The notes beneath the pieces were generated by a model. The model was not told the DNA's origin. It did no database searches and saw only the letters and a program-made list of their open reading frames with translations. A program made the position numbers and the translations under genes. A stretch of 64,000 bases of DNA from Candidatus Bipolaricaulota bacterium (GTDB lineage Bacteria; Bipolaricaulota; Bipolaricaulia; RBG-16-55-9), in the NCBI GenBank assembly GCA_026982655.1, contig JALSGO010000083.1:30-64029 (forward strand), read 5' to 3'. Positions 32,531 to 52,627 of the stretch are shown here, piece by piece (the stretch's first letter is position 1; each line of letters starts with the position of its first letter).

Positions 32531-33181
32531 GTGAAAGCGCGGAAGAAACGGCCCGAGGAGGAGCGGTGGGAACTCTCGCCGGAGGCGCGTCGACTGAGCC
32601 GGCGGAAGTTCCTGGCTCGCTTGGGCCTGGGCTCGCTGGTCCTCACGGCGGGAGGAGCGGTCAGCAGCATCGGCGCCTACATCCTGCCGAAGGTGAACTT
32701 TGAGCCCTCTCAAGCGTTTACCGCCGGGCGACCGGAGGACTACAACGTCGGGGACGTGCGGCTGATCGAATCCCAGGCCGTGTTCATCTTCCGCACGCCC
32801 TATGGCTTTCAGGCCGTCTCGGACATCTGCACCCACCTGGGGTGCGCCTATCAGCCGTACGGCCCGCCGGACGACGAGTACCCCCAGGTCCATGCCCATT
32901 GCCCCTGTCACGGGTCGGTCTTCGCGCGGGACGGGCGGGTGTTGCGGGCTCCCGCTCCTCGGCCCGTGCCCTTCTACTACATGACGATCAACCCATCGGG
33001 CTTGCTGGTGGTGGACAAGGGGGTCTACGATCCCACGGACGAGCTGAGCCGCCAGAGCGGCGAGGGGGTAGGGCACAACCTCTATCTCGACCCCGAGACG
33101 GGGCAGATGGTAGAGGGTCCGCTGCCCACCGGCGAGGACCTCCGGTTCGGAGCGATCCGAACCGAGCCCTCTCGAGGCTGA
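32531..33181 (+). CDS. Rieske [2Fe-2S] protein with Tat signal
   Basis: SRRKFLARLGLG twin-arginine; CTHLGC ... CPCHGS Rieske boxes; GTG start. Confidence 0.8.
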   Translation: MKARKKRPEEERWELSPEARRLSRRKFLARLGLGSLVLTAGGAVSSIGAYILPKVNFEPSQAFTAGRPEDYNVGDVRLIESQAVFIFRTPYGFQAVSDICTHLGCAYQPYGPPDDEYPQVHAHCPCHGSVFARDGRVLRAPAPRPVPFYYMTINPSGLLVVDKGVYDPTDELSRQSGEGVGHNLYLDPETGQMVEGPLPTGEDLRFGAIRTEPSRG

Positions 33182-33268
33182 AGCCCGCGGGTGCGGAACG
33201 GGCGTGGAATAGAGAGAACAAAGAAGGAAGGCAAAGAAAGAATCTCCCAACGATGGAGGTGCTGTTCG

Positions 33269-35848
33269 GTGCAGAGATCGCAGGCACAGGCGAGGACGGC
33301 GACGGAGAAACGGGAGCAAAGCTCCGCGGACACGCGTCTGGAGCTCCCCATCCGCGGGATGACGTGCGCTTCGTGCGTGGCCCGGGTCGAGCGGGCGCTC
33401 CAAGGCGCGCCCGGCGTCCGGGAGGCCCAGGTGAACTTCGCCGCGGAGCGCGCGTCCGTGGTGCTCAACCCGGAGGCGGGCTCCCCGGAAGCGCTGGTGG
33501 AGGCCGTCCGCGAGGCCGGCTATGAGGTCCCCACCGAGGCGCTCACCCTGCGGGTAAAGGGGATGACGTGCGCTTCGTGCGTGGCCCGGGTCGAGCGGGC
33601 GCTTCGCGAGGTCCCGGGAACCTTGAAGGCCGCGGTCAACTTCGCCGCGGAGACGGCCCAGATCGAGTACCTCCCCGGGGTGGCCTCGCCGCAGGACTAC
33701 CTCCAGGCCGTCCGGGACGCGGGCTACGAGGCCCAGCTCGCCGAGGAGGAGCGGGGCGAGGACGCGCTGGAGCGCCAGAGGCGGGAACACGAGGCCCATC
33801 TCAAGAAGCTCCGCCTTAAGATCGCCGTCGGTGCGATCATCAGCGTCCCCGTCTTCTTCGGCAGCTACCCCAAGCTCTTCCCCTGGGTGCCGGAGATCCT
33901 GCAGAACTTCTACGTGCTCTGGGCGCTGACCACCCCGGTGCAGTTCTGGGTCGGCTGGCAGTTCTACAAGGGGACCTGGGCGGCCTTAAAGCACAAGTCC
34001 GCGGACATGAACACGCTGATCGCCGTCGGCACCTCCGCGGCCTACCTCTACAGCGTGCTCCTCATCTTGTTCCCCCGGTTCTTCGAGGCCCAGGGGATCG
34101 CCCGGGAAGTGTACTTTGACACCTCGACGATCATCATCACCCTCATCCTGGTGGGGCGGTATCTCGAGGCCGTGGCCAAGGGACGCACCTCGGAGGCCAT
34201 CCGCAAGCTCATGGGGCTCCAAGCCAAGACGGCCCGCGTGGTCCGCGACGGGCGCGAGATCGAGATCCCCGTCGAGGAGGTCCAGGTCGGCGACATCGTG
34301 GTGGTGCGCCCCGGCGAGAAGGTGCCTGTAGACGGCGTGGTGATCGAGGGCTCCTCCGCGGTGGACGAGTCGATGGTCACGGGCGAGTCGATCCCCGTGG
34401 AGAAGGGCCCCGGCGACGAGGTGATCGGGGCGACGATCAACAAGACGGGGACCTTTACCTTCAAGGCGACCCGAGTGGGCAAGGACACCTTCCTGAGCCA
34501 GATCATCAAGCTGGTCGAGGAGGCCCAGGGCTCGAAGGCCCCCATCCAGCGCCTGGTCGACAAGGTGACGGGCGTCTTCGTCCCGGCGGTGATGCTCATC
34601 GCCTTGGGGACGTTCGTCGTGTGGTACTTCTTCGGGCCGCACCCCGCTTTGACCTATGCGCTGCTCAACGCCGTGTCGGTGCTGATCATTGCCTGCCCCT
34701 GCGCGCTGGGGCTGGCCACTCCGACGTCCATCATGGTGGGGATGGGCAAGGGGGCCGAGCACGGCATCTTGATTCGCAGCAGCGAGGCGCTCGAGCGGGC
34801 GGGCAAGATACAGACCATCGTCTTCGACAAGACGGGGACGCTCACCCGCGGAGAGCCCCAACTGACGGACATCCTCCCCGCGGAGGGCTTCACGGAGGCC
34901 GAGGTGCTCCGACTGGCGGCGGCCGCGGAGCGGCGGAGCGAGCACCCCCTGGGGGAGGCGATCGTCCGAGGCGCCGAGGAGCGGGGGTTGGACTTGGCCG
35001 AGCCGGAGGGCTTCCAGGCGATCCCGGGCCACGGCATCGAGGCCACGGTCGAGGGGCACCGGGTGCTGTTGGGCAACCGGCGGCTCATGGAACGGGAGGG
35101 CGTCGACGTGCGCGCCTTGCAGGCCCAACTGGAGCGACTGGCCGACGAGGGCAAGACCCCCATGATCGTGGCCGTCGACGGCCGGGCAGCCGGGGTGCTG
35201 GCCGTGGCCGACACCCTCAAGGAGGGCTCCCGAGAGGCGATCGAGGCGCTGCACCGGTTGGGCATCGAGGTGGCGATGATCACGGGCGACAACCGGCGCA
35301 CCGCCGAGGCGATCGCCCGCCAGGTGGGGATCGATCGGGTGCTGGCCGAGGTGCTCCCCCAGGACAAGGCCAAGGAGGTCAAGCGCCTCCAGCAGGAGGG
35401 CCGGGTGGTGGCCATGGTGGGCGACGGGATCAACGACGCGCCCGCGCTGGCCCAGGCCGACGTGGGGATCGCCCTGGGGACGGGGACGGACATCGCCATC
35501 GAGACGGCCGAGGTCATCCTGATCTCGGGCGACGTGCGCGGGGTGGTGACCGCCATCGCCCTCTCCCGGGCCACGATCCGCAACATCAAGCAGAACCTCT
35601 TCTGGGCCTTCTTCTACAACACGGCGCTCATCCCTGTGGCCGCCGGGGTGCTCTACCCGTTCACGGGCCTGTTGCTCAACCCCATCCTCGCCGCGGCGGC
35701 GATGGCCACCAGCTCCGTCTCCGTGGTGACGAACGCCCTGAGGCTGCGGCGGTTCCGCCCCCCGGTCGTCCAGGGACCGCCCGGCCCCTCGCGCGGGGAG
35801 CCGCGCCCCGACTCCGTCCCGGTCCCGGCGGCCGGAGCGGGCCGCTAG
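33269..35848 (+). CDS. copA: Copper-translocating P1B-type ATPase (CopA-like), two N-terminal HMA domains
   Basis: 2 x [15 protein letters not shown]; CPC in TM6; DKTGT; YN...MATSS Cu(I) signature; GDGINDAP. Start uncertain (GTG 33269 after GGAGG; the ORF opens at 33191). Confidence 0.85.
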
Positions 35849-35923: not shown

Positions 35924-36238
35924 ATGACCGAAGAACTACTGGTGTTGTTACAGCAGGGGAGCCTGGCGGCCCACCCGGAGGCGAAGCGCCACGCCCAGCG
36001 GCTCGTCCGCACCGTCATCGGCCACACCCAGGGCATCGAGCGGATGATCGAGGAAGAGCGATACTGCATCGACATCTTAAAGCAGATCGCCGCGGTGCAG
36101 GGGCTGCTGACCAAGCTGGCCCACACCGTAAGCGAAGCCCACATGAAACACTGCGTGCGACTGGCCATCGAGGAGGGCCACGGCGAGGAGGCCGTTGAAG
36201 AACTGATGGAGACGCTGAAATACCTGCGGAGCGTATAG
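35924..36238 (+). CDS. csoR: CsoR-family copper-sensing transcriptional repressor
   Basis: Strong similarity to M. tuberculosis CsoR across the core (GHTQGIERMIEEERYCIDILKQIAAVQGLL...HMKHCV), with the Cys/His/Cys Cu(I) ligand pattern conserved; GAGAGGAGAGG RBS. Confidence 0.85.
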   Translation: MTEELLVLLQQGSLAAHPEAKRHAQRLVRTVIGHTQGIERMIEEERYCIDILKQIAAVQGLLTKLAHTVSEAHMKHCVRLAIEEGHGEEAVEELMETLKYLRSV

Positions 36239-36245
36239 TTCCCCC

Positions 36246-38663
36246 ATGGGGTGGCTGGACGGCCTGCTGCGCCATCGTGGGCTCGTGCTGGGGGCGGCTT
36301 TGCTGCTCACCGTTCCGGCGCTCCTGTCTCTCAGTCGATTGGAGTCCCAGGACACCTACGATGCTTGGTTCCCCCCGGACGACCCGGCGTATCGCTTCTA
36401 TCGGGAGTTCCAGCGGCGGTTTGAGAACGACATGTTCATCGTGGTGGCCTATCGAGACGAGACCCTCTTCACCCGGGAGGGGCTGGCGTTCCTCGCGGAG
36501 CTCACCGCCCGTCTTGCGGAGCTCCCCTACGTGCGGGAGGTGACCAGCCTCACGAACGTCGAGCACGTCCGGGGGGAAGAGCAGGCGCTCATCGTCGAAC
36601 CCCTCGTCCCCGATCCGGAGCGCCTCGATCCCGACGTCGTCCGGCAACGGGCCCTCTCGCGCCCCCTCTACCGCGGGCTGCTGATCTCCGAGGACGGGAC
36701 GACGACCGCGGTCGTCGCCGAACTCGACCGGATCGCCTCCATGGACGAGGAGGCCGCTCTGGTGGGGGCCCTCAAGGACCTCCTGCGCACGCTGGAGGTC
36801 CGAACGGGCAAGTCCTTCTACATCGGGGGCTATCCCGTCCTCGACGTCGAGATCATGCAGGCTTCCGAGCGGGATATCCGGACGTTCATCCCCTTGACCG
36901 TCGGGGCCATCTTCCTCGTATTGTGGGGGGTCTTCCGCCGACCGTCGCTGGCCGCCCTGGCGTTCGTGTCCGTCTCGCTGGCGCTGGCTTGGACCTTCGG
37001 GCTGTACGCCGGCCTGGGTCTTAAGTACAGCATGATGCTGAGCATCCTGCCCACGATCATCCTCGCCATCGGGATTGCGGATGCGGTACACATCTTGGTC
37101 CACTACTACGAGGAGCTCGCCCGGGGGCGGCCGCAGCGGGAGGCCCTCCGTCAGACCCTACGAAAGATGCTCCGCCCCTGTCTGTTCACGACGCTGACGA
37201 CCGGAGCCGGGTTCATCTCGTTCTTGAGCAGCGATATCCCCGTGGTGCGGCTGACGGGGCTCTTTGCCGCGGTGGGCATCGGGCTTGCGTTCGTGCTCAC
37301 GGTGCTCGTGCTGCCCGCAGCCGTCTCGTTTTTCCGCCCGCCGCACGGGACGGCCCGGCGACGGTCTCAGGGCACGTTCGCTCGGGCCTTGGAGGGGCTG
37401 ACCCGAACGACCCTGGCCCACCCGCGCGCCGTGCTCCTGGGGGCCGGGATCGTGCTCGTCTTCGGCCTGTACGGGATCTCCCGCTTGGAAGCCGAGACGC
37501 TGGGCCTGGAGTGGCTGCGCGACGACCACCCCCTCCAGCAGAGCTATCGCTTCATCGAGGAGAACCTCACCGGGCTGTACAACCTCGAGCTCATCGTCGA
37601 GGGCGAACGGGACGCGCTCCGCTCCCCCGAGATGCTCCGCCGGATCGAGGAACTCAGTGCGTTTGCGCTCCAACAGCCGGGCGTGCGCAAGGCGATCTCC
37701 GTGGTCGACTACGTCAAAGAGATCCACCGGGCGCTCCGCGGGGGAGATCCCCGGTACTACACGATCCCGGACACGGCCCGCGACGTCGCGCAGGCGTTGT
37801 TGCTCTACGAGTTCTCCGGGGGACGCGAGCTGCGCGAGATCGTAAGCGGCGACTACAGCGCCGGACGACTCACCCTGCTGCTGGATGCCCTCTCCAGCCG
37901 GGAGTACACCGAGCTCAACCGACGCATCCTCGAGCGCGCCGAGACGTTGGACTTCCCTCGGCCCGTGCAGGCAACCGGTGCAGTGGTCCTGGTCGAGGCG
38001 ATGCTCAAGAAGCTCACCCTCAGCCAGGTCCGGAGCTTGGGGTTGGCTTTGGCCCTGATCACCTTGCTTATGATCGCCCTGTTGCGCTCCTGGAAGTTGG
38101 GGCTGCTCAGCTTGATCCCCAACGGGCTGCCGATCCTGCTGATGTTTGCGACCATGGGCCTGCTCTCCATCCCCCTGGACGCGGCGACGTCCACGGTCGC
38201 GGGGATGGCTTTAGGGATCGCCGTGGACGACACGATCCACTTCTTGACCCGCTTCCGACGCGAACTGAACGTGACGGGCGACTATCGCCGGGCGCTCACG
38301 CAGACGGCCCGGACGGTCGGCCAGGCGATCGTGTTCACGTCCGTGATCCTGCTGGCCGGCTTCAGCGTGCTGTTGCTGGGCAGCTTCAAGGGAACGGTGT
38401 ATATGGGGTTGCTCGTCGGGCTCACGATGCTCTTCGCGCTCGTAGGGGATTTGGTGCTCCTACCCGCGCTGCTCTGGGTCCTCAAGCCCCTCCCTGTGTC
38501 CGCAGCTGCTTCGACCCCGGCTCCGGCTCCGATGGCGGACGATGGCCGATCAGCTTCCGACCAGAGGAGGTTGAGGGAGGTCATGGACGACGCCCCCCGG
38601 GTGCAGGGTACGCTTATGCGTGGCCGGGACGAGGAAACAGGAGCCCGCGAAGCCGGCAGGTGA
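36246..38663 (+). CDS. RND-superfamily / MMPL-type exporter (HAE3/HpnN-like), paralog 1
   Basis: 805 aa, two 6-TM bundles with periplasmic loops; N-terminal LSRLESQDTYDAWFPPDDPAY...VREVTSLTNV pattern shared by the three paralogs. Confidence 0.8.
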   Translation: MGWLDGLLRHRGLVLGAALLLTVPALLSLSRLESQDTYDAWFPPDDPAYRFYREFQRRFENDMFIVVAYRDETLFTREGLAFLAELTARLAELPYVREVTSLTNVEHVRGEEQALIVEPLVPDPERLDPDVVRQRALSRPLYRGLLISEDGTTTAVVAELDRIASMDEEAALVGALKDLLRTLEVRTGKSFYIGGYPVLDVEIMQASERDIRTFIPLTVGAIFLVLWGVFRRPSLAALAFVSVSLALAWTFGLYAGLGLKYSMMLSILPTIILAIGIADAVHILVHYYEELARGRPQREALRQTLRKMLRPCLFTTLTTGAGFISFLSSDIPVVRLTGLFAAVGIGLAFVLTVLVLPAAVSFFRPPHGTARRRSQGTFARALEGLTRTTLAHPRAVLLGAGIVLVFGLYGISRLEAETLGLEWLRDDHPLQQSYRFIEENLTGLYNLELIVEGERDALRSPEMLRRIEELSAFALQQPGVRKAISVVDYVKEIHRALRGGDPRYYTIPDTARDVAQALLLYEFSGGRELREIVSGDYSAGRLTLLLDALSSREYTELNRRILERAETLDFPRPVQATGAVVLVEAMLKKLTLSQVRSLGLALALITLLMIALLRSWKLGLLSLIPNGLPILLMFATMGLLSIPLDAATSTVAGMALGIAVDDTIHFLTRFRRELNVTGDYRRALTQTARTVGQAIVFTSVILLAGFSVLLLGSFKGTVYMGLLVGLTMLFALVGDLVLLPALLWVLKPLPVSAAASTPAPAPMADDGRSASDQRRLREVMDDAPRVQGTLMRGRDEETGAREAGR

Positions 38664-39373: not shown

Positions 39374-39424
39374 CTCCCGTGGGCAGACCGAAGGCTACAC
39401 GACAATCGGGGAGGGAATGCCAAG

Positions 39425-40000: not shown

Positions 40001-40098
40001 CCGAAGCGCTCGGTTGGGGCCGGGCACGGGGGACGGCCCCCTAATCCCACCCCAGGAGGGAAGGGAAAGGGGAAGCTTCCTGAAGGAAGAAGAAGCCC

Positions 40099-43142: not shown

Positions 43143-43190
43143 GCCCTACGTGCGATCCACCTCCACAGAGAACGAAAGGATCGAAAGGGC

Positions 43191-45304: not shown

Positions 45305-45344
45305 CCTTGCTGGACGTCTTCCGGGGGGAACATGACGCAGATCA

Positions 45345-45374
45345 TTGATCCCACCCCACGGGGGGTGGGATAAT
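45345..45374 (+). promoter_or_regulatory. Promoter TTGATC - 18 nt - GATAAT whose spacer is the perfect palindrome ATCCCACCCC-acgg-GGGGTGGGAT (CsoR-type operator candidate, site B; palindrome 45348..45371)
   Basis: Read from sequence; the operator occupies the -35/-10 spacer, a classic repressor position; 35 nt upstream of the cytochrome b start. Confidence 0.65.
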
Positions 45375-45405
45375 GGCGGGCGAAAGGCGGGCGAAGGAGG
45401 GACGC

Positions 45406-46491
45406 ATGGAAGCACAGAAGACGGTCATGCAAAGCCGACGGCGACGCCTCTGGGAGGCGCTCGACGAGCGCCTGGGGTTGAGCGCCCTGAGGTACCCCGT
45501 CCCCGCCCACGCCAACACGCTGGGATATATGTTAGGCGGGATCACCCTCTTTGGCTTCCTCATCTTGATCGCCACAGGCATTTATCTTACGCAGTTCTAC
45601 AACCCCGACCCCAGCCAAGCCCACGACAGCGTCGTCTACCTCGTCGAGCAGACGACGTTCGGGGACCTCGTCCGCAGCATCCACTACTGGACGGCCAACT
45701 TGGTGGTCGTCACCGTTCTCCTCCACCTTCTACGGATCTTCTTTGCGGGGGCGTACAAGCGGCCCCGGGAGGCCAACTGGCTGGTCGGCTTGGCGCTTTT
45801 GGCGATCACCATCGGCTTCGTCTTCACCGGCACGGTCCTCAAGTGGGACCAAGAGGCCTACGAGGCGATGCTCCACAACATGGCCTTCTCGGAGCTTCTG
45901 GGCGGGATCGGGAGCTGGTTCTCCCCAAGTTTTACCCTGAGCGTGCCGATGCTCACCCGCCTCTACGCCGTCCACATCGCGGTGCTCCCGGCGCTCTTCC
46001 TCATCTTGATCGCGATTCATCTGATGCTGGTCAAGTACCACGGGATCTCGCCGCTGCCCACCCTGAACGCTCGGGCGGGCACCTGGGGCAAGGAAGGGAC
46101 GGGCCGCTTCTCCGCGCACCTGCGGCGCATGGTGGGCTACGGGCTATGGCTGCTGGCCTTAGCGGGGGTGCTGGCGCTCCTCTGGCCCGCGCCGCTGGGC
46201 TATCCCCCGGTTCCGGGCGCCGAGGTGACGAAGCCCCCGTGGTTGTTCCTGTGGCTCTACGCCTTCGAGAACTGGGTGGGGACCGCCGGGCTGCTCTGGC
46301 CACCGCTTGTGCTCTTCCTGCTGCTGGCGTTGGTGCCCTTCCTCGACCGCAGCCCCTATCTGGCACCCCGAAAGCGACCCGTAACCGTCACGCTCGGCGT
46401 GGTGCTGTTGCTCTTTTTGGTCGGGTTGAGCGTGTACGTGGCCCTCACCCCGCCGGTGAGCCACATCCAAGGGCAAGGGATGGGAGGTTGA
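45406..46491 (+). CDS. Cytochrome b (bc-complex cytochrome b N-terminal domain), paralog 1
   Basis: RSIHYWTANLVVVTVLLHLLRIFFAGAYKRPRE (R..H..A....H..R..F.G.Y heme-ligand pattern), 8 or 9 TM; GAAGGAGGGA RBS. Confidence 0.8.
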   Translation: MEAQKTVMQSRRRRLWEALDERLGLSALRYPVPAHANTLGYMLGGITLFGFLILIATGIYLTQFYNPDPSQAHDSVVYLVEQTTFGDLVRSIHYWTANLVVVTVLLHLLRIFFAGAYKRPREANWLVGLALLAITIGFVFTGTVLKWDQEAYEAMLHNMAFSELLGGIGSWFSPSFTLSVPMLTRLYAVHIAVLPALFLILIAIHLMLVKYHGISPLPTLNARAGTWGKEGTGRFSAHLRRMVGYGLWLLALAGVLALLWPAPLGYPPVPGAEVTKPPWLFLWLYAFENWVGTAGLLWPPLVLFLLLALVPFLDRSPYLAPRKRPVTVTLGVVLLLFLVGLSVYVALTPPVSHIQGQGMGG

Positions 46492-46495
46492 GACC

Positions 46496-47077
46496 ATGCG
46501 ACCACAGAGCAGTTGGGTTCACGTCGGTTGGATCACAGCGTTGCTGACGGTGGCGGTGGGGATCGGGCTTGCGGTGGGGCTTCCGGGACGGGCCCACGAG
46601 GGCGCGGAGGTGAGCGCCTATCCTACCACCGTGGCCCCGGGGGAGACGCTCTTCGTGGAGGGCGCGGACATCAACCCTAACGGCCCGATCGCCCTCTTCT
46701 TGGAGGGCGTAAAGGGCAAGTTCCGCCTGGGTCAGGTCCGGGGGGACGAGGACGGCGGGTTCAAGACGAGCGTGGCCCTCCCGCCGGATCTCCCGCCGGG
46801 GACCTATTTGTTGGTGGCCGTCGGGGCCAACGGGGAGAAGGCCACCTTCTCGGTGACGGTGGCCGCCGCGGTAAGCTCCCTCACCCAAGAGCCCAGGGAG
46901 CCCACGGACGCGCTCATGGAGCTGGACCGGTCAAGGTCCTCCGAGGAGTGGGCGTTCCTCGCCGTCGTGATCGGGCTGAGCCTGCTCCTGGGGGCGTGGC
47001 TGGCCCGCCCGGAACGGATGGTTGCACCTGCCTCTCCTTCTGCCTCCGCCGCCGAGCCCGACGGGAGCGGGCCTTGA
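46496..47077 (+). CDS. Hypothetical bitopic membrane protein (N- and C-terminal TM helices, central beta-rich domain) co-transcribed with cytochrome b
   Basis: ORF begins 5 nt after the cytochrome b stop; no heme (CxxCH) or copper motif. Confidence 0.4.
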   Translation: MRPQSSWVHVGWITALLTVAVGIGLAVGLPGRAHEGAEVSAYPTTVAPGETLFVEGADINPNGPIALFLEGVKGKFRLGQVRGDEDGGFKTSVALPPDLPPGTYLLVAVGANGEKATFSVTVAAAVSSLTQEPREPTDALMELDRSRSSEEWAFLAVVIGLSLLLGAWLARPERMVAPASPSASAAEPDGSGP

Positions 47078-47103
47078 GCGCAAAGGGGGCCGAGAGGAAG
47101 GAG

Positions 47104-48309
47104 ATGAGCCGACGGGGGTACGAAGGAGTTTCGGTCGTGGGGGCCGGACCGGCGGGGCTTGTGGCGGCCCTCACGCTGGCCCGCGCAGGCGTCCCCGTCA
47201 CCGTCTACGAGAAGGGGCCGACGGTGGGCACCCGCTTCCACGGCGACTTTCAAGGCTTAGAGAACTGGTCCCGCGAGCTCGACGTCTTGGAGGATCTCCG
47301 GACGATGGGGCTTGCGATCAACTTCGCCGTGCAACCGCGCGACTCAGCGGACTTCTACGACGCCTGGGACCGGAAGTACGACATCAGGACCCGAGAGCCC
47401 CTCTTCTATCTGGTGCGCCGCGGGGGTGGGGAGGGGAGCCTCGACCGCGGGCTCTACGCCCAGGCCCGGGAGGCCGGGGTGCGGTTCCGTTTCCACACCA
47501 AGCTCGATCGGGTGGAGGGCCCGGCGATCGTGGCCACCGGCCCGCGCTACGCCGACGGCATCTGCGTGGGCTACCTCTTCGAGACGGACCTAGAAGACCT
47601 TACGGCCTGCATCCTCTCCCAGCGCCTGGCCCCCCGCGGCTACAGCTACCTCCTGGTGGCCGACGGTCGGGCGACGCTGGTGAGCTGCCACTTCGCCGAC
47701 CTCCCCCGCTGGCGGGATCATCTGGAGGCCACCGTCGAGGCCTTCCGAAAGCTTTACCGCTTTGAGATGCGGAACCCCCGCTTCTTCTCCGGCTACGGGA
47801 ACCTCTTCGCCCGGGGGCGCTTCCGCGACGGCCAAAAACTCTACGTGGGCGAGGCCGCCGGGCTCCAGGACGGCCTGTGGGGCTTCGGGATGCGCTTTGC
47901 CCTGCGCTCGGGATATCTGGCGGCCCAGAGCCTGCTCTCCGGCCAAGACTACGACGAGCTGGTCCGAAGGGAGCTTCTGCCGCACCACCGGGCGGGGCTG
48001 GTCAACCGCTTTTTCTGGAACCTCTTGAGCGATCGCATGTTGGCGTTCTTCCTGCGGCGGGCGGCGCGCTGGACCGACCTTCGGGGGCGGCTGCGCGAGC
48101 TCGCCGGGCCCCGTCCCTGGAAGGATCGGCTCTATCCCTTCATCCGGGGAGCCTGCGGCTGGCGGGCCCGCTACCGCGACGAGCGCTGCCTCCGGGAGGG
48201 GTGTCCCTGCATCGGGTGCGCGTGTCGGAGTCCTTCGCGTACGATCTCGAGCCCCTGCGTCTCTTGGGGAGCGGCTCGGTTCCGACTCGACATGACGCAA
48301 GTCATTTGA
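47104..48309 (+). CDS. FAD-dependent oxidoreductase (geranylgeranyl-reductase-like family) with a Cys-rich C-terminus
   Basis: VSVVGAGPAGLVAALTLARAG dinucleotide-binding motif; ...GEAAGLQDG...; C-terminal CPCIGCACRS; GAGGAAGGAG RBS. Confidence 0.7.
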   Translation: MSRRGYEGVSVVGAGPAGLVAALTLARAGVPVTVYEKGPTVGTRFHGDFQGLENWSRELDVLEDLRTMGLAINFAVQPRDSADFYDAWDRKYDIRTREPLFYLVRRGGGEGSLDRGLYAQAREAGVRFRFHTKLDRVEGPAIVATGPRYADGICVGYLFETDLEDLTACILSQRLAPRGYSYLLVADGRATLVSCHFADLPRWRDHLEATVEAFRKLYRFEMRNPRFFSGYGNLFARGRFRDGQKLYVGEAAGLQDGLWGFGMRFALRSGYLAAQSLLSGQDYDELVRRELLPHHRAGLVNRFFWNLLSDRMLAFFLRRAARWTDLRGRLRELAGPRPWKDRLYPFIRGACGWRARYRDERCLREGCPCIGCACRSPSRTISSPCVSWGAARFRLDMTQVI

Positions 48310-48334
48310 CCCACCCCCTCTGGGGTGGAATAAT
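48306..48334 (+). promoter_or_regulatory. Promoter TTGACC - 17 nt - AATAAT containing the near-palindrome GACCCACCCC-ctct-GGGGTGGAAT (CsoR-type operator candidate, site C)
   Basis: Core arms match 7/8; the -35 overlaps the stop codon of the upstream oxidoreductase gene. Confidence 0.5.
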
Positions 48335-48342
48335 AGAGTGAA

Positions 48343-48669
48343 ATGTCTGCAGAAGCGCGGCGCGGGATCGACAGCAGGTTCCGGGATCTCCTGTCCCTGT
48401 TGCTCATCGGGGTGTTGATCCTGCCGATGGCCGGCCCCTCCGGCCCCTTCACGGAGTCAGGGGCGTGTTCGGGGAACCCGCTTGAGGCGGGATGCGCTGC
48501 GATTCTGCATGTCGCCCGAGGCACGGCCGGTCATTGCCTGCCTTGTGGTGCCGTTGTCCTCCTGAGCTCTCCTCTGCCCTTTGCCTGGGCACTCGTAGGG
48601 GATTGGACTTCCGCCGGACTTGGCAGCCCGTTGGATCCGTCCTTTGTGCCCTGGCGTCCCCCTGCCTGA
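48343..48669 (+). CDS. Putative small Cys-rich membrane protein (uncertain; GC3 drops in the 3' half)
   Basis: First ORF after the site-C operator; hydrophobic N-terminus; five Cys (CSGNPLEAGC...HCLPCG). Confidence 0.25.
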   Translation: MSAEARRGIDSRFRDLLSLLLIGVLILPMAGPSGPFTESGACSGNPLEAGCAAILHVARGTAGHCLPCGAVVLLSSPLPFAWALVGDWTSAGLGSPLDPSFVPWRPPA

Positions 48670-48784
48670 CCTCCGCTTCGTTCTTTTGCCCGTGCCCGCG
48701 GTCCTTTGAACGGGCCTTCGTCGGCCTAAGGGATCGTACGTATCTCAACTCCATCTGCAATCTGCACAAGGAGCAGGAGGTCGA

Positions 48785-49270
48785 GTGCCAATGCCTAAGA
48801 AGACGAACAAGGATCGGAAGGTCAAGCAGCAGCGTCTACTCCGGCAGGGGGCGGCCGGGGGCTGGCGGCCCTGGGCCTTTGGGGCCGTCACCCTCGGGGT
48901 GCTAACAGCCGCGTTTGGGCTGCTCTTGCCGAAGTTCTTCGCCGACGGTCCCGCAGCGGACGGGGAGGCCAACGTCATCCTGGTCGAAGCGGACATGGCC
49001 GGGCTCTATCCCAAGGAGATCCGGGTCAAGGCCGGGGAGCCCGTGACCATCCGCCTGCGCAGCTTGGACAACCGGTTCCACCTGGACGGGGGAGGCAAGC
49101 ACCAGTTCGCCATCGACGAGCTGGGGGTCAACATCATCGCTCCGCCGCTCGGCACGGCCGAGGCCACCTTCATCCCTACGGAACCGGGTGAATACGAGTT
49201 CTACTGCGACATCTGCTGCGGCGGGCGGGCCAACCCGACCATGGTAGGGAGGCTGATCGTCGAGCTATGA
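48785..49270 (+). CDS. Membrane-anchored cupredoxin_1-like copper-binding protein (paralog 2)
   Basis: ...HLDGGGKHQFAIDELGV...EYEFYCDICCGGRANPTMVGRLIV, same architecture as the protein at 42768. Confidence 0.6.
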   Translation: MPMPKKTNKDRKVKQQRLLRQGAAGGWRPWAFGAVTLGVLTAAFGLLLPKFFADGPAADGEANVILVEADMAGLYPKEIRVKAGEPVTIRLRSLDNRFHLDGGGKHQFAIDELGVNIIAPPLGTAEATFIPTEPGEYEFYCDICCGGRANPTMVGRLIVEL

Positions 49271-50109
49271 GCGCTCTGACCCAGATCTCCGCGCGCAAGG
49301 TGGTGCTGGCCTCGGCGATCGCCCTGGGGGTGATCGCCGCCGCGGTCTTCTTGGGGCTGCGGCACCCCTCCGCCCAGGCCGTCCCGATGAGCCCGCTCCT
49401 CCCGGCGGTGACGCTGGGGACCATCGTGGTGGCCGGGATCGTCGACGGGATCAACCCCTGTGCCTTCACGGTGCTCCTACTGTTCGTTACTGCCCTGCTC
49501 GCGAGCCTGCAAACCCGCAGCGACGTCGGGATCGCCGAGAACGTGGGGGCCACGCGCGCCCGGATCGTGGGGCTCGGCTCCATCTACATCGCAGCCATCT
49601 TCCTCACCTACCTGGCGCTGGGGGCGGGGCTCTTGGTGACGGCAGATCTCTTCGTGCGGGAGCACCTGCCCGCCCGGATCGGGGCGCTGCTCGCCATCTT
49701 CCTCGGGCTGTGGATGCTCAAGGACTACTTCCTGCCCGGGTGGGGCTGGCGGCTGGGGGCCCCCAAGGTCGTGGGGGAGTGGGCCCGGCGCGCGGCCCGG
49801 AAGATGACCGTCCCGGCGCTGGCGCTCGGGGGCTTTCTCATCGGGCTCTGCACCGTGCCCTGCAGCGGGGCGGTCTACCTGGCGGTGCTGGCGCTCCTCT
49901 CGACCCAGCCGACCGCGACGGCCTTCGGGTACCTGGTGCTCTACAACCTGATGTTCATCCTCCCGTTGGTCGGGGTGCTGGCCGTGGCCGCGTCGCGCCC
50001 GGCGCTGAACCGCTTGGCCCGCTGGAACCTCCACCACCGGGAGGGGGTCCGGCTGGCCTTGGGGTCGGGTGTCGTGCTCATGGGGCTGTTCATCCTGTAC
50101 ACCGTCTAG
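49267..50109 (+). CDS. CcdA/DsbD-family transmembrane thiol-disulfide protein (cytochrome c-type biogenesis CcdA-like)
   Basis: ATGA overlap with the upstream gene; DGINPCAFTVLLLFV (TM1 Cys) and LCTVPCSGAVYL (TM4 Cys), six TM. Confidence 0.6.
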   Translation: MSALTQISARKVVLASAIALGVIAAAVFLGLRHPSAQAVPMSPLLPAVTLGTIVVAGIVDGINPCAFTVLLLFVTALLASLQTRSDVGIAENVGATRARIVGLGSIYIAAIFLTYLALGAGLLVTADLFVREHLPARIGALLAIFLGLWMLKDYFLPGWGWRLGAPKVVGEWARRAARKMTVPALALGGFLIGLCTVPCSGAVYLAVLALLSTQPTATAFGYLVLYNLMFILPLVGVLAVAASRPALNRLARWNLHHREGVRLALGSGVVLMGLFILYTV

Positions 50110-50159
50110 CTGGGAAACGGAGAACGGATCGAGAACCCAGGAGAAAGGAGGAAGCGGCG

Positions 50160-50480
50160 GTGAACAACCATCATGCGGGAGGCGGCAAGCCCTGCCACGT
50201 CGAGCGGCTGGAGAAAGAGGTGGACATGGAGGCGCTGCGCTCCACCCGGGTCAGCATCCTGGCGGTGACGGGGATGGGGTGTCCCAACTGTGCCCTGCGG
50301 GTGCACAACGCGCTCCTCGCCCTCCCCGGCGTCCATCGGGTGGACGTGGAGCTGGAGGCCGAGCGGGCGATCGTCTACTGGGACCCGACCGCCCTGCAGC
50401 CGGAGAGGCTGATCGAGGCGGTCTCCCAGGCTGCGGCGGGGACCCCTCACGACTACCGGGCGTACTTCGTGAAGCCGTAG
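50160..50480 (+). CDS. copZ: Heavy-metal-associated (HMA) domain copper chaperone, CopZ-like, with a His-rich N-terminal tail
   Basis: GTG start after AGGAGAAAGGAGG; NNHHAGGGKPCH tail; VTGMGCPNCALRV (MxCxxC). Confidence 0.7.
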   Translation: MNNHHAGGGKPCHVERLEKEVDMEALRSTRVSILAVTGMGCPNCALRVHNALLALPGVHRVDVELEAERAIVYWDPTALQPERLIEAVSQAAAGTPHDYRAYFVKP

Positions 50481-50503
50481 CGGAGCCACAGACGCAGAGC
50501 GGG

Positions 50504-50590
50504 GCTGCCCGGGGCCCGAGTCACCGTCGTCGCATCGGCTTCCACCTCCGCCCCGGGCAGCTCCCCGCCCTGCCCGCCGACGGCAGGGAG
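50504..50590 (+). other. Two GC-rich hairpins (12-bp perfect inverted repeat GCTGCCCGGGGC ... GCCCCGGGCAGC, then CCCTGCC-N7-GGCAGGG) after the copZ-like gene
   Basis: Read from sequence; approximate coordinates. Confidence 0.4.
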
Positions 50591-50642
50591 CTCCCACACA
50601 CGGGGAGAGAAGGAGAAAGGGAAGACACAAGGAGGGATTTCC

Positions 50643-51173
50643 ATGGACCTTAGGCTCATCGCCGTTGCGATCGTCTCCTTGGCGCTGGGGTTCCTCTTGG
50701 CCTCCGGCCTGCGCCCGGAGGTCGGGGTGGGGCCTTCGGAGGCGGAGCGGATCTTGGAGCGGCTGCGGCGCGAGATCATCCCGGAGGAGGGCAGCCCCAC
50801 GGGCTACGGGATCGCCTTCAGCGAGGCGGGCTACCAGACCCTGGTGGCCAAGAACCGCACACTCAGCGTCCCGCCCGAGCGGGCGGACGACTTCGAGGGC
50901 CTGGACATGAGCCTGCCCTGCTGTCCCTTCCAGAGCCCGAGCGTCGACGAGGCGAAGAACTGCCCGTGCGAGCACCATCAGGCGCTCTACGGGCTGGCCA
51001 AGTGGCTCCTCCAAGAAGACTATCCCGCAGACCGGGTCCAGGAGGAGGTGGCGCGCTGGAGCCGCTACCTCTTCCCCAAGGAGGCGCTGCGGGCGGAGAT
51101 GGAGCGGCGGGCGAAGCTCGATCCCGCCGTCGAAGCCGCCCTGGAGGAGCTCAAGGCCAAGGGGAAGTGCTAG
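50643..51173 (+). CDS. Membrane-anchored protein with Cys/His metal-binding-like motifs (LPCCPF, NCPCEHH, C-terminal Cys)
   Basis: N-terminal TM; motifs reminiscent of the CopG/DUF411 or PCYCGC families, but assignment is uncertain. Confidence 0.4.
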   Translation: MDLRLIAVAIVSLALGFLLASGLRPEVGVGPSEAERILERLRREIIPEEGSPTGYGIAFSEAGYQTLVAKNRTLSVPPERADDFEGLDMSLPCCPFQSPSVDEAKNCPCEHHQALYGLAKWLLQEDYPADRVQEEVARWSRYLFPKEALRAEMERRAKLDPAVEAALEELKAKGKC

Positions 51174-51227
51174 GCCGATTGGAACAGGGACGACCCGACG
51201 AGATCGAGGACGAGGAGGCGAGCGACG

Positions 51228-52541
51228 ATGATGGCATCCACAGCCGAACCGGCGGAAACGGAACCCCGACGGGGCGGGGGCCTGGGGAAGAGCCTTCGGG
51301 AGCGCTGGGCGCTCTGGACCCTGGGGCTGTTCGCCCTGCTGATCGTAGGGCTCTTCTTCTTCTACCGCCCGCCCATGGAGGAGAGCATCACGGGGGACAC
51401 CTTCCACCCCATCCGCGGGCTGATCGGCTTCCCCCACGGCCCGGGGGCCGCCGCGGAACCCTACGACGAGGAGGCCCTCGACCGCTTCGTGGAGGAGACG
51501 ATCGCGGAGACCTACGCCAAGGCGCGCATCGATCAGATCAAGCTCCTCCTCATGGGGCTCCTCATCGGCTTGATCCCGCTGGGCTATTACCGCGGTCGGT
51601 CGGACCGCCTAAAGCGCCTGGGACAGCGGGTCAACAAGATCTGGGACCCCTACACCTTCGGCACCGTCTCGGGGCTCCTTTTGGTGGGGGTGATCATCCC
51701 TACGGGGACGGTCCTCGGCCTCTTCTACAGCGCCGACGCGGAGAAGCTCTACGAGAGCATGGCGGGCATCGTGGGGAACCCCATCCTGAGTTTCCTGCGC
51801 AACCTCCACCTCTGGGCCTCGGAGGCGTTCTTGCTCTTCCTGTTCCTGCACACGGCCCGGATCGTCTCCACGCGGGCCTACTTTGCGGGACGCAAGCTCG
51901 TCTGGGTTCTGGGTGTCGTGCTGCTTGTGATCAGCTGGGCGACCTTCCTGATCGGCACCTTCATCCGGGGGGACCAGGAAGCGTTTGAGGCCTGGGTCCA
52001 CATGATGGCCCTCATCCGCTTCATCCCCCTCGTCGGGGACCCGATCGCCGACTTCTTCTCCGGCCCCTTCGCCGTCATGCGGCTGTACGTCTTCCACATC
52101 GTGATCACCACCATCGCCTTGCTGCTGATTCTGGCACCCCACGTGCTGATGCAGAAGGTGTACGTCCACGTGCAGCGGCGCTGGAGGGCGGCCCTTCGCT
52201 ACACCCTGGGGCTTACGGCCCTGATCGCGGTCCTCAGCCTGCTGGTGCCCGCCCCCTTCCTGGCGGAGCCCTACCACGACCTGGAGATCACCAAGCCACC
52301 GTGGCCCTATTACTTCCTGTACGCCTGGGAGAACATCGGCGGCGCGGTGAGCATGATCTGGTCGCCGCTGCTCATCCTGGTGCCGCTGCTTCTGCTGCCG
52401 TACGCGCTGGAGCAGCTGCCACTCGCCCGCCGGACCGCCCAACGGGTGGGCGACTGGGTCTTCTACGGCGGGGTCCTGATCACCTTAGGGCTGAGCTACT
52501 GGGTGGCCGCCTCGGGAATTGTGGCCCACGTCTTCGAATGA
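51228..52541 (+). CDS. Cytochrome b-like protein (bc-complex cytochrome b N-terminal domain), paralog 2 with an N-terminal extension
   Basis: RNLHLWASEAFLLFLFLHTARIVSTRAYFAGRK heme-ligand pattern; polytopic. Confidence 0.7.
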   Translation: MMASTAEPAETEPRRGGGLGKSLRERWALWTLGLFALLIVGLFFFYRPPMEESITGDTFHPIRGLIGFPHGPGAAAEPYDEEALDRFVEETIAETYAKARIDQIKLLLMGLLIGLIPLGYYRGRSDRLKRLGQRVNKIWDPYTFGTVSGLLLVGVIIPTGTVLGLFYSADAEKLYESMAGIVGNPILSFLRNLHLWASEAFLLFLFLHTARIVSTRAYFAGRKLVWVLGVVLLVISWATFLIGTFIRGDQEAFEAWVHMMALIRFIPLVGDPIADFFSGPFAVMRLYVFHIVITTIALLLILAPHVLMQKVYVHVQRRWRAALRYTLGLTALIAVLSLLVPAPFLAEPYHDLEITKPPWPYYFLYAWENIGGAVSMIWSPLLILVPLLLLPYALEQLPLARRTAQRVGDWVFYGGVLITLGLSYWVAASGIVAHVFE

Positions 52542-52616: not shown

Positions 52617-52627
52617 GGGTGAAGCGA

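Follow-up and report, generated by a model that had tools for sequence, protein, structure and literature searches.

Organization of the locus

The stretch of DNA analysed here (64,000 nucleotides from an uncultured bacterium, termed the 'window' below) harbors a predicted CsoR-type copper regulon of five co-oriented operons, extending from 32.4 to 57.8 kb; every feature described below lies on the forward strand. The first operon is opened by the gene for a bc-type Rieske [2Fe-2S] protein (32531-33181; Pfam Rieske, E=1.7e-10), which carries a Tat signal (SRRKFL) and the cluster boxes CTHLGC and CPCHGS. As a sequence-only reading of the same DNA had proposed, this is indeed the first gene of a copA-csoR operon: it lies 9 nucleotides upstream of the gene for CopA1 (33191-35848), a Cu(I)-exporting P1B-1 ATPase with two HMA domains (Pfam E1-E2_ATPase and HMA; CPC, YN and MxxSS motifs), which is followed by that for the copper-sensing repressor CsoR (35924-36238; Pfam Trns_repr_metal, E=6e-24; Cys48, His73 and Cys77). 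Farther downstream are an MMPL/RND-type transporter (36246-38663; Pfam MMPL, E=3.5e-34) and two membrane-anchored, Ig-like DUF1573 proteins with CxC motifs (38723-39373 and 39425-40000; NCBIfam OS_HP2 family), a pair that also occurs in the related contig L002.

The second operon begins with copA2 (40099-42771), encoding another Cu(I) P1B-1 ATPase, in which two HMA domains are preceded by a YHS domain at the N terminus. Its stop codon is overlapped by the start of a gene (42768-43142) for a membrane-anchored, 124-residue Cu(I) chaperone of the CupA type (PDB 2mry/4f2e, E=3.6e-22), in which the Cys and CxMxM ligands are conserved and which probably faces the cytoplasm. A beta-CASP metallo-beta-lactamase (43191-44582) and a HAD hydrolase (44579-45304), both assigned by Pfam, follow as syntenic passengers, in a gene order that L002 retains.

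Operon 3 encodes cytochrome b1 (45406-46491), a di-haem protein with seven transmembrane (TM) segments in which the b6 and subunit IV portions are fused (Pfam Cytochrome_B, E=1.7e-29); orf193 (46496-47077), with a signal peptide, a mature N-terminal histidine, a seven-stranded Ig-like domain and a C-terminal TM anchor; and an FAD-dependent oxidoreductase of the geranylgeranyl-reductase family (47104-48309), a homologue of which follows csoR in contig L006. The six genes of operon 4 specify orf108 (48343-48669), a small secreted or membrane protein with a conserved CxxCG and a C-terminal PWRPPA that is common to its homologues in L002 and L011; the cupredoxin Cupr2 (48785-49270); a polytopic membrane protein (49267-50109) with 8-9 TM segments and two 'PC' motifs; a single-domain HMA copper chaperone (50226-50480; GMGCPNC; Pfam HMA, E=1e-13); the membrane-anchored orf176 (50643-51173), whose LPCC...NCPCEHH motif is conserved in L002 and L011 and for which no family match was found in Pfam or NCBIfam; and, as the distal gene, cytochrome b2 (51228-52541; Pfam Cytochrome_B, E=3.5e-18). 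The last operon (52619-57798; Pfam and NCBIfam assignments) encodes a second MMPL transporter of the HAE3 type (52619-55573), a LolA-like protein (55610-56407) and a cyclopropane-fatty-acid-synthase-like methyltransferase (56446-57798).

The products of 42768 and 48785 had been described as membrane-anchored cupredoxins and 'type-1 copper carriers'. Both are membrane-anchored and match Pfam Cupredoxin_1, but neither displays the His-Cys-His-Met type-1 ligand set, and no type-1 cupredoxin is found within the window. The former is homologous to CupA, the Cu(I) chaperone of pneumococci. Cupr2, an outward-facing protein of 161 residues, instead possesses a Cys-rich, CuA-like site (H..DGGG.H and YC..CCGG...P.M, both invariant in its family; match to the CuA domain of N2O reductase in the PDB, E=1e-5). 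The 'CcdA-like' assignment of 49267 was not confirmed: as a possible CcdA/DsbD-like thiol-disulfide transporter, it is suggested by a sub-threshold match to Pfam SfLAP (23 bits against a cutoff of 35) and by the two membrane 'PC' motifs. A CcdA-like protein follows Cupr2 in about 20 loci.

Predicted copper-responsive control

Four of the five operons are headed by the palindrome CCCACCCC-N4-GGGGTGGG (without mismatch at 32481 and 45350; with a single one at 48310 and 52593), and the remaining one, that of copA2, by a degenerate copy with two mismatches (40046-40065), at the equivalent place of which L002 has an exact operator. A search allowing up to three mismatches recovered seven sites, against 2.1 expected. 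The motif is identical to the core of the published operator of Mycobacterium tuberculosis CsoR (PMC10601412).

Operator O1 (CCCACCCCACCGGGGGTGGG; 32481-32500) lies downstream of a TTGACA...TATCGT promoter, before the Rieske gene. When 39900-52700 (12.8 kb) was scanned for sigma-70-like promoters, only those at 45345, 48306 and 52554 were found, and all coincide with operators: O3 (45350-45369) and O4 (48310-48329) are located inside the spacers of P3 (TTGATC-18-GATAAT; 45345-45374) and P4 (TTGACC-17-AATAAT; 48306-48334), respectively, while P5 (TTGACA-17-TACAGT) and O5 (52593-52612) together occupy 52554-52612, with an orthologous site in L002. Among related contigs, orthologous operators precede the Rieske gene (L006 and L171) and the cytochrome b1 gene (L002, L011 and L013). 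Copper-conditional control of the Rieske and cytochrome b genes by these predicted operators can soundly be inferred, because the operator core is that of M. tuberculosis CsoR, a CsoR with C-H-C ligands is encoded in the first operon, and orthologous operators are present in relatives.

The earlier proposal that each cytochrome b gene sits behind a palindrome-containing promoter holds for b1 (operator at 45350) but not for b2, which is the sixth and last gene after the 48306 promoter and has neither a promoter nor a palindrome of its own. The 52593 palindrome was rejected as an operator for b2, being located downstream of that gene and before an MMPL gene.

The Rieske and cytochrome b proteins

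Rieske and cytochrome b proteins are usually components of the respiratory chain. All four haem-ligating histidines are found in both cytochromes, with b6-type spacing. The Qo motif is of the PPW type (PPWL in b1, PPWP in b2) and lacks the usual tyrosine. The N-terminal half of cytochrome b1 resembles cytochrome b6 (PDB, E=2e-37), and an AF2 model of the whole protein matches the bc1/bcc cytochrome b fold (TM 0.65-0.73). Across 80 homologues the four haem histidines are invariant (80/80), the PPW motif and a KWDQE motif are conserved, and three further histidines (157, 238 and 353) are family-specific; of these, the invariant His157 and His353 lie on the outer side. Based on the b6-like half, the intact haem ligands, the fold match and the PPW motif, a quinol-oxidising role for cytochrome b1 is plausible. 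The closest NCBIfam model is that of the Geobacter cytochrome b ExtP (176 bits against a cutoff of 290), and the SoxC model also matches below its cutoff (112 bits). No CxxCH motif occurs in any of the 18 proteins checked, in agreement with the earlier remark that cytochrome c1 or f is not encoded nearby, and a c1/f-type partner is thus lacking.

Cytochrome b2 is a paralogue that has diverged from b1 (32% identity); it carries two additional TM segments at the N terminus and a C-terminal histidine. Its family is very small: a search of 1.84 billion proteins yielded seven representatives at E<1e-30. A homologue of 53% identity is encoded beside a two-component system and SHOCT and DUF302 genes, with no Rieske gene or copA nearby.

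For the Rieske protein, the best NCBIfam match is PetC, below cutoff. The cop-linked Rieske clade is nested within the Rieske proteins of Rieske-cytochrome b-Rnf clusters of the same lineage, to which its members are 64-72% identical while having lost their C-terminal DC.PC motif. The regulon's Rieske protein is a lineage-specific duplicate of the Rieske protein from those clusters. The notion that the copper-linked genes stand in place of a constitutive bc complex finds no support in the relatives, where Rieske and cytochrome b genes form an operon of their own that is linked to Rnf genes.

A cytochrome b family beside copper genes

Cytochrome b1 belongs to a hitherto undescribed family that is found beside copper genes in hundreds of species (at least 361 species harbor a member, mostly Chloroflexota). 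Neighborhoods were counted in 80 loci, of which 52 species loci extend over at least 12 kb. Within those 52, the constant partner is a homologue of the Ig-like orf193, located immediately downstream of cytochrome b1 in 45; nearby genes encode a P1B-ATPase in 38, a CupA-like protein in 25, a Cys-rich cupredoxin in 21 and a CcdA-like protein in 20. A true type-1 cupredoxin is present in 21 of these loci, in most cases encoded 1-3 kb downstream and in the same orientation. The recurrent, tight order is cytochrome b1, orf193, cupredoxin(s), CcdA-like protein, CupA and CopA. Lgt often accompanies this cassette, which is present in 3-4 copies in several genomes, as is typical of resistance islands; a small subunit with two TM segments is found in most of the loci and is absent from the window. 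A Rieske gene is rare, being found near cytochrome b1 in only 4 of the 52 large loci and in 5 of all 80; in one of these (L025), Rieske, cytochrome b1, orf193 and CopA are encoded in one row.

Possible function of the regulon

The reading that we tentatively prefer, while giving it somewhat less than an even chance, is that of a copper-induced, quinol-oxidising cytochrome b module that would deliver electrons to copper proteins located on the external side of the membrane; it is drawn from sequence, synteny and analogy. A rise in cytoplasmic Cu(I) would release CsoR from its operators, and the module would then be built along with the efflux machinery. Its core would be cytochrome b1 and the N-terminal-His, Ig-like orf193; in this lineage a dedicated Rieske paralogue is probably used too, with cytochrome b2 as a second version. 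Electrons would flow from the quinol pool to copper-binding proteins outside the membrane, the acceptor here being the Cys-rich, CuA-like Cupr2 (kept reduced by the CcdA-like protein) and in many Chloroflexota a type-1 cupredoxin; we infer both this direction and the final acceptor. The likeliest purpose would be control of the redox state of extracytoplasmic copper and its capture, through a cupric-reductase-like activity that feeds Cu(I)-thiolate sites, with ordinary energy conservation a less likely purpose. Eukaryotic cupric/ferric reductases (Fre1 and Dcytb), which are transmembrane di-haem b proteins, provide a precedent.

Several observations count against this preferred reading. The Rieske and two cytochrome b genes occupy separate operons, and both the small two-TM subunit and a type-1 cupredoxin are missing from the window. 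For orf193, no Pfam family was found, and its well-predicted domain (AF2 pLDDT >90 for residues 38-122) matches only generic Ig folds, so that any metal site in orf193 would be putative. Cupr2 might serve solely to store or chaperone Cu(I), without acting as a redox centre. Finally, it is not obvious what a cell would gain by externally reducing Cu(II) to Cu(I), the more toxic form, unless the product were immediately trapped or exported.

A copper-conditional respiratory branch, which is essentially the idea put forward in the sequence-only reading, is rather unlikely. The Rieske protein and cytochrome b paralogues would form an alternative bc-like complex, in which copper-protein acceptors replace c-type cytochromes and which is expressed only when copper is plentiful (compare the plastocyanin/cytochrome c6 switch); CopA, CupA, the CcdA-like protein and the Cys-rich cupredoxin would mainly metallate the acceptors. 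Such designs exist in archaeal SoxM-type complexes with sulfocyanin, and the idea draws further support from other species, in which 27 of 80 loci have a genuine type-1 cupredoxin adjoining the cytochrome b1 homologue, from the lack of a c-type cytochrome in the region, from Lgt as a frequent companion, and from the L006 island, which encodes a CuA-type COX2 and COX1 oxidase. However, the window harbors neither a type-1 cupredoxin nor an oxidase, no terminal haem-copper oxidase was found in any of the 80 cytochrome b1 loci, the multi-copy cassette with several Cu-efflux ATPases per locus resembles a resistance island, and CsoR regulons are classically detoxification regulons. Quinol oxidation itself survives as plausible from the ligands, fold and PPW motif of b1; a single module of the kind first proposed fares poorly, with the Rieske and two cytochrome b genes in three operons and a Rieske gene near so few b1 loci.

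It is distinctly improbable that the proteins are stress isoforms, namely copper-tolerant replacements for a housekeeping Rieske/cytochrome b(-Rnf) complex in which Cu(I) damages the exposed Fe-S clusters, performing ordinary quinol oxidation with no direct part in copper chemistry. Alternative Rieske isoforms are known in cyanobacteria, and the cop-linked Rieske protein, which has lost the DC.PC motif, arose by recent duplication within the Rnf-cluster clade; cytochrome b1, however, is no duplicate of the short Rnf-linked cytochrome b, but represents a separate family, which has invariant His157 and His353 and a partner of its own in orf193, and which is associated with copper genes in phyla where a Rieske gene is not found nearby. 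It is likewise improbable that the region is a mosaic metal-resistance island in which the Rieske protein, cytochrome b1/orf193 and cytochrome b2 travel independently and share nothing but CsoR co-regulation (the cytochromes, for example, feeding electrons into MsrQ-like envelope repair or acting on another metal or metalloid): their three separate operons, the neighbors of the b2 homologue, gene content that differs between close relatives and a closest NCBIfam model from a selenite/tellurite cluster all fit such an arrangement, but the operator is conserved before each gene in several relatives, and both the recurrent cassette order and the L025 row argue against it.

Comparison with known systems

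The proteins share several features with Rieske/cytochrome b complexes (bc1, b6f and the actinobacterial bcc). The di-haem cytochrome b has the subunit-IV portion fused to it, b6-type spacing of the histidines, a P-x-W motif in the ef loop and a predicted fold matching solved cytochrome b chains; the Rieske protein is Tat-anchored and has both cluster boxes as well as the disulfide cysteines. Unlike those complexes, the present system has no c1, f or di-haem c subunit, a Qo motif (PPWL/PPWM/PPWP) missing the usual tyrosine, additional invariant outer-side histidines, copper-repressor control, and a Rieske gene that adjoins neither cytochrome b gene; 75 of the 80 family loci have no Rieske gene.

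Comparable in design are the quinol oxidase complexes of Sulfolobus (SoxM and SoxABCD), in which a blue copper protein, the sulfocyanin SoxE, replaces cytochrome c1 beside the cytochrome b homologues SoxG and SoxC. SoxC works without a Rieske protein and has a PPW-type motif, PPWF (PMC4122944). Those complexes are archaeal and fused to a terminal haem-copper oxidase, of which there is none in the window or the 80 loci, whereas the present system is bacterial and set in a copper-efflux context. The petI bc1 complex of Acidithiobacillus ferrooxidans (Qo motif PPWY; PMC4122944) is similarly tied in function to a cupredoxin, rusticyanin, but has cytochrome c1 and serves iron oxidation. In Geobacter sulfurreducens, a Rieske/cytochrome b core (ExtO/ExtP/ExtQ) lies inside the extHIJKLMNOPQS cluster for selenite/tellurite reduction (PMC5877670), so that there too a gene cluster for metal(loid) handling has acquired a Rieske/b6-like pair; Ext differs in its metal, its many multihaem c-type cytochromes and its outer-membrane porin, and cytochrome b1, scoring below the ExtP cutoff, is not an ExtP orthologue.

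With respect to copper tolerance, CopI of Rubrivivax and Pseudomonas is an example of a periplasmic, cupredoxin-like protein that acts as a tolerance factor, but it is soluble, with a His/Met-rich region and no known cytochrome b partner, and Cupr2 matches its model only at E=0.0065. The cop operon of Streptococcus pneumoniae encodes a clear homologue of the 124-residue protein, CupA, with the same Cu(I) ligands, an N-terminal membrane anchor and a gene adjoining that of a Cu(I) ATPase; it differs in its regulator (CopY, not CsoR), its gene order (here copA, then cupA) and its lack of redox proteins. The cso operon of M. tuberculosis (csoR, Rv0968, ctpV and Rv0970) shares the operator core, a CsoR with C-H-C ligands and a Cu(I) P-type ATPase in one operon. 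Literature searches found no Rieske protein or cytochrome b in known CsoR regulons; unlike that of M. tuberculosis, the regulon described here contains genes for both.

Gene content and operon structure

The window has a G+C content of 67%, and the nearest relatives of its proteins are found in MAGs labelled Bipolaricaulia, Fraserbacteria or 'uncultured bacterium'. Between 32.5 kb and 57.8 kb every gene lies on the + strand, and the genes of this island, identified through Pfam, NCBIfam and PDB sequence searches, fall into five operons (TU1 to TU5). TU1 encodes a Rieske protein (32531-33181), CopA1 (33191-35848), CsoR (35924-36238), MMPL1 (36246-38663) and two DUF1573 proteins (38723-40000). 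TU2 encodes CopA2, which carries a YHS domain (40099-42771), a 124-residue Cupredoxin_1 protein, here termed CupA-like (42768-43142), and a beta-CASP and a HAD hydrolase (43191-45304). TU3 comprises the genes for cytochrome b1 (45406-46491), the Ig-like protein orf193 (46496-47077) and an FAD oxidoreductase (47104-48309). TU4 comprises those for orf108 (48343-48669), the 161-residue, Cys-rich Cupredoxin_1 protein Cupr2 (48785-49270), a polytopic, CcdA-like 'PC-motif' membrane protein (49267-50109), an HMA chaperone (50226-50480), orf176 (50643-51173) and cytochrome b2 (51228-52541), and TU5 those for MMPL2, a LolA-like protein and a CMAS-like methyltransferase (52619-57798). Both CopA proteins display the full set of P1B-1 Cu(I) ATPase features (CPC, YN and MxxSS transmembrane motifs, together with HMA domains).

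Several of the less familiar genes deserve description. The two DUF1573 proteins are membrane proteins of the Ig-like type that bear SCMCT and SCGCT motifs and match the NCBIfam OS_HP2 (seleno)protein family; the pair, which sits inside the Rieske-copA-csoR operon, is kept in the related locus L002 and is also found near the cassette in L020 and L024. The flavoprotein co-transcribed with cytochrome b1 belongs to the geranylgeranyl-reductase family, follows csoR in L006 and has its own operator in L011; it might conceivably modify quinone side chains under copper stress. Neither orf108 (CxxCG and an invariant C-terminal PWRPPA) nor the membrane-anchored orf176 (LPCC...NCPCEHH) belongs to a family; both occur in L002 and L011, and both look like further metal-binding parts of the operon. 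Behind each of two MMPL/HAE3 transporters lies a LolA-like protein (52619-56407 and 58180-61486), and the transporter region (52593-61486) also contains the cyclopropane-fatty-acid-synthase-like gene (56446-57798). A CsoR-type operator precedes the first of these pairs, pointing to remodelling of the envelope or of lipids in response to copper. Downstream of the island, a cytochrome-d1/YncE-like beta-propeller is fused to a rhodanese domain (61664-63124), and similar propeller genes are present in the L002 and L006 islands. The window also carries, between dnaK-dnaJ and an oligopeptide ABC transporter, a gene of the Rad52/Rad22 family (26442-27191; Pfam E=7e-35), a family that is uncommon in bacteria outside prophages.

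Probable copper control of the island

A 20-bp palindrome, CCCACCCC-N4-GGGGTGGG, is found exactly at 32481 and 45350, with one mismatch at 48310 and 52593, and with two at 40046, corresponding to a putative operator at four promoters and a degenerate fifth. Its core is identical to that of the operator bound by CsoR of Mycobacterium tuberculosis, 5'-GTAGCCCACCCCCAGTGGGGTGGGATAC (PMC10601412). The window CsoR retains the Cu(I) ligand set Cys48, His73 and Cys77. A consensus scan of 39900-52700 returned only three sigma-70-like promoters, each coinciding with an operator, which lies inside the promoter spacer at 45345 and 48306 and just downstream of the promoter at 52554. In two related loci (L006 and L171) the Rieske orthologue likewise lies behind this operator, as does the cytochrome b1 orthologue in three (L002, L011 and L013). 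On the strength of the operator core, the CsoR ligands, the promoter overlap and the orthologous operator sites, CsoR-type copper control can be inferred on good grounds, and what emerges is a putative CsoR-type regulon that includes cytochrome b proteins and a Rieske protein. The sequence-only reading had placed cytochrome b2 behind a palindrome-containing promoter of its own; it has neither, and lies within TU4.

The promoters of TU3 and TU4 share approximately 45 nucleotides (45331-45374 and 48291-48334), with a second palindrome (ATGACGCAnnTCAT / CATGACGCAnnTCAT) just upstream of the -35 box in both. This element was considered as a second operator and rejected, being present only at these two promoters in the window and in none of the relatives; that distribution looks like the outcome of a recent promoter duplication.

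Cytochrome b1, cytochrome b2 and orf193

The N-terminal half of cytochrome b1 aligns with cytochrome b6 (E=2e-37), and all four heme histidines are present with the 14/15 spacing of the b6 type. These residues (H93, H107, H190 and H205) align with the cytochrome b6 ligands; they occur without exception in the 80 homologues and are also present in cytochrome b2, so that the two histidine pairs expected on helices B and D for hemes bL and bH are kept in both paralogues. Binding of heme cn as in cytochrome b6 was considered and rejected, the equivalent of Cys35 being a methionine (YMLGG). The AlphaFold model of cytochrome b1 contains seven transmembrane helices (mean pLDDT 76) and resembles cytochrome b of bc1/bcc complexes with TM-scores of 0.65-0.73. 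At the position of the Qo motif, in the ef loop, cytochrome b1 reads PPWL, cytochrome b2 PPWP and 71 of the 80 homologues PPWM, so that proline and tryptophan are kept and tyrosine is lost; the accessible part of one paper describes PPWF and PPWY among Qo variants, and does not include PPWM, PPWL or PPWP (PMC4122944).

Cytochrome b2 is a divergent paralogue (32% identity to cytochrome b1) with two extra N-terminal transmembrane segments, and its family is very small (seven representatives at E<1e-30 among 1.84 billion proteins). The two paralogues have in common a histidine in the cd loop (His157) and another near the C-terminus (His353), both on the outer side. Within the family, 79-80 of 80 members have these residues, which the short, Rnf-linked cytochrome b proteins described below lack. 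No CxxCH motif was found in the 18 island proteins checked, among which there is thus no heme c acceptor subunit of the c1, f or di-heme c type. By their sequences, the cytochrome b proteins look competent.

The neighboring orf193 has a signal peptide whose predicted cleavage site carries a near-invariant 'AH', as well as a C-terminal anchor and, in a structure prediction from a shallow alignment of 15 sequences, a confident seven-stranded Ig-like domain. It has no Pfam family, and in a search by fold it matched only generic Ig, MG2 and CARDB structures and none of the YcnI, CopC or LPMO type; a 'histidine brace' is accordingly unsupported.

The cupredoxin-like proteins

Neither window cupredoxin carries the type-1 set (His...Cys-x(n)-His-x(n)-Met), and a motif scan of all window ORFs detected no type-1 copper site; the proposal that these two proteins serve as type-1 copper carriers is not supported. 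Their ligand patterns are Cys...CxMxM (the protein at 42768) and H..H...C..CC...M (the protein at 48785). The former is a homologue of CupA, a Cu(I) chaperone of Streptococcus pneumoniae (PDB 2mry/4f2e, E=3.6e-22), with the Cys and CxMxM ligands aligned. It agrees with the CupA type also in its transmembrane segment (residues 1-19) and in the overlap of its gene with the copA2 stop codon. As in CupA, whose soluble domain is in the cytoplasm, the soluble domain is predicted from the charge distribution to be cytoplasmic.

When Cupr2 is aligned to the N2O-reductase CuA domain (E=1e-5), the first histidine, both cysteines and the methionine are retained; the loop histidine is replaced (CCGGRANPTM), and the CuA ligand set is therefore incomplete. 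In its place, a third cysteine and a second upstream histidine are invariant in the family, whose invariant motifs are H..DGGG.H and YC..CCGG...P.M. A basic N-terminus followed by a transmembrane segment predicts that the domain faces outward. The adjacent CcdA-like protein has only a sub-threshold match to Pfam SfLAP (23 bits versus 35) and no NCBIfam match, and displays NPCAF and VPCSG motifs within predicted transmembrane segments.

A conserved cassette

A conserved cassette ties copper pumps, copper chaperones and cupredoxins to the cytochrome b1 family. When one genome per species was scanned, relatives of cytochrome b1 were identified in 361 genomes, mostly of Chloroflexota, with some in Fraserbacteria, Bipolaricaulia and Actinomycetota, and in some cases with three or four copies per genome. 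Six-frame ORFs of the 80 best loci from other species were searched with the window proteins, and neighbors within 10 kb were counted in the 52 loci of at least 12 kb. An orf193 homologue was present in 45 of the 52, always directly downstream of cytochrome b1, a P1B-ATPase in 38, a CupA-like protein in 25, a Cupr2-like protein in 21, a CcdA-like protein in 20 and an HMA protein in 12; CsoR and Rieske genes were each found in four. With a Rieske profile HMM the number of loci with any Rieske gene within 10 kb rises only to five of 80, and the gene order in one locus (L025) is Rieske, cytochrome b1, orf193, CopA. In many loci, including the closest relatives, an ORF of 68-81 residues with two transmembrane segments lies between cytochrome b1 and orf193 (for example, at 3260-3475 in L011 and at 11051-11266 in L013); it is missing from the window, where these genes are only 4 nt apart (46491-46496).

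Clustering of all neighboring ORFs added Lgt, EamA, ICMT/PEMT, two-component systems and two genuine type-1 cupredoxin families, with the motif H...C-x2-[PAV]GH-x3-4-GM. The island of the closest relative, L006, encodes a true type-1 cupredoxin (FYCAIPGHRERGM; 1513-1929) and a COX2-like protein with a CuA motif (YCSFYCGIGHQLM) beside a COX1 gene (16598-19417); the window has neither. The context of an actinomycete member, in Myceligenerans indicum (L089), contained nothing informative.

Origin of the Rieske protein

The window Rieske protein has the features of a Rieske subunit, with an SRRKFL Tat motif and CTHLGC and CPCHGS boxes that include the bc-type disulfide cysteines. It is not co-encoded with the cytochrome b genes, which lie 12 kb and 18 kb away in separate operons. 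A relative of 72% identity, on the same contig as the L002 island, is found in the order Rieske, CopA, CsoR, FAD, and another of 67% identity heads a Rieske...CopA(YHS), CupA cluster. Relatives of 53-64% identity occur in clusters with a short cytochrome b (252-271 residues), RnfC, RnfD and further genes, one of them from the same metagenome as L002 and L006. In a neighbor-joining tree the Rnf-linked proteins enclose a single clade of cop-linked ones, which have lost the C-terminal DC.PC motif of the former. The nested clade and the cluster contexts indicate that the copper-regulated Rieske protein is a lineage-specific duplicate. A scan of metagenomes with the Rieske alignment returned, among the matches listed, only generic Rieske genes of 43% identity or less. 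A pairing of this lineage-specific protein with the equally rare cytochrome b2 was rejected, because the sole cytochrome b2 homologue context examined lacks a Rieske gene.

The Rnf-linked clusters of Bipolaricaulota-like relatives, which hold the nearest non-cop homologues (L007, 8001-14175; L009, 8001-15622; L172, 2754-8540; L173, 8001-13834), share the order Rieske, short cytochrome b without a subunit-IV part, RnfC, RnfD, (RnfG/E/A) and Fer2/FeS proteins. The joining of a Rieske/cytochrome b pair to Rnf genes is unusual, and no description of it was found in the literature.

Possible roles of the module

The sequence-only reading envisaged a copper-conditional, quinol-oxidizing module that uses type-1 copper carriers. 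Its observation stands in part, and its interpretation is supported in part. A separate Rieske/cytochrome b operon, which it had named as a possible ground for abandoning the idea, is present in relatives; the heme histidines, whose absence was named alongside, are kept in the window paralogues. The cytochrome b module would oxidize quinol and pass electrons outward to copper proteins. The role that we favor, tentatively, is extracytoplasmic copper redox control and capture, because several efflux ATPases are nearby, the distribution is multi-copy and island-like, the thiol-rich, outward-facing cupredoxin has a CcdA-like partner, and terminal oxidases are lacking (no heme-copper or other terminal oxidase was found in the 80 loci).

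That same lack speaks against the next reading, a copper-conditional respiratory branch with cupredoxin carriers, and the presence of type-1 cupredoxins in 27 of the 80 loci (21 of the 52), mostly 1-3 kb downstream and on the same strand, speaks for it; this reading we consider rather unlikely. In a more radical and frankly improbable proposal, cytochrome b1, the two-transmembrane peptide and orf193 would constitute a new, Rieske-independent class of bc-like enzyme, widespread in Chloroflexota. Here a copper site or third cofactor on the outer face, and not a Rieske cluster, would be the high-potential acceptor for a Qo-type site. This outer-face site would be formed by His157 and the C-terminal His353, both invariant and specific to the family, by the N-terminal histidine of orf193, or by all of these. 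The enzyme would be dedicated to copper handling as a quinol:copper (or quinol:cupredoxin) oxidoreductase, to which this lineage would have added its Rieske paralogue later. That the proteins are copper-tolerant isoforms of the housekeeping complex, an explanation favored by the duplicate Rieske protein but at odds with the invariant outer histidines missing from the Rnf-linked cytochrome b, is doubtful. It is equally doubtful that the genes are unrelated passengers of a mosaic island.

If the module acts on copper, as in the favored role, bacterial copper defence would gain a redox step that is driven by quinol and needs no oxygen; this would matter for anaerobes, which, to our knowledge, cannot use multicopper oxidases. 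Should it form a copper-conditional respiratory branch instead, bacteria would have their own equivalent of the plastocyanin switch and of the blue-copper bc analogues of archaea. On either reading, a conserved but unnamed set of proteins (orf193, the two-transmembrane peptide, the Cys-rich cupredoxin, orf108 and orf176), found in at least 361 species, gains a testable function, and the known range of Qo motifs becomes wider.

Comparison with known systems

Copper homeostasis and quinol-oxidizing Rieske/cytochrome b complexes are both well-studied fields. Literature searches turned up no report of a CsoR regulon that includes a cytochrome b or a Rieske protein, none of this cassette, and none of a cytochrome b family whose genes regularly accompany those for Cu(I) pumps, copper chaperones and cupredoxins. 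The bc1, b6f and bcc complexes have the same cytochrome b and Rieske architecture as the window, but differ in possessing a heme c subunit and in lacking copper regulation. The SoxM and SoxABCD systems of Sulfolobus employ cytochrome b homologues that are paired with blue copper or act without a Rieske protein, and have a PPWF motif (PMC4122944). In Geobacter, the ExtO/ExtP proteins form a Rieske/cytochrome b pair inside a metalloid-reduction cluster (PMC5877670); among NCBIfam models, that of ExtP matches cytochrome b1 best, though with a score below the cutoff, and the ext cluster, like the window with its propeller-rhodanese fusion, includes a rhodanese-like protein. Further likenesses are to the pneumococcal CupA/CopA pair and to the CsoR regulon of M. 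tuberculosis.
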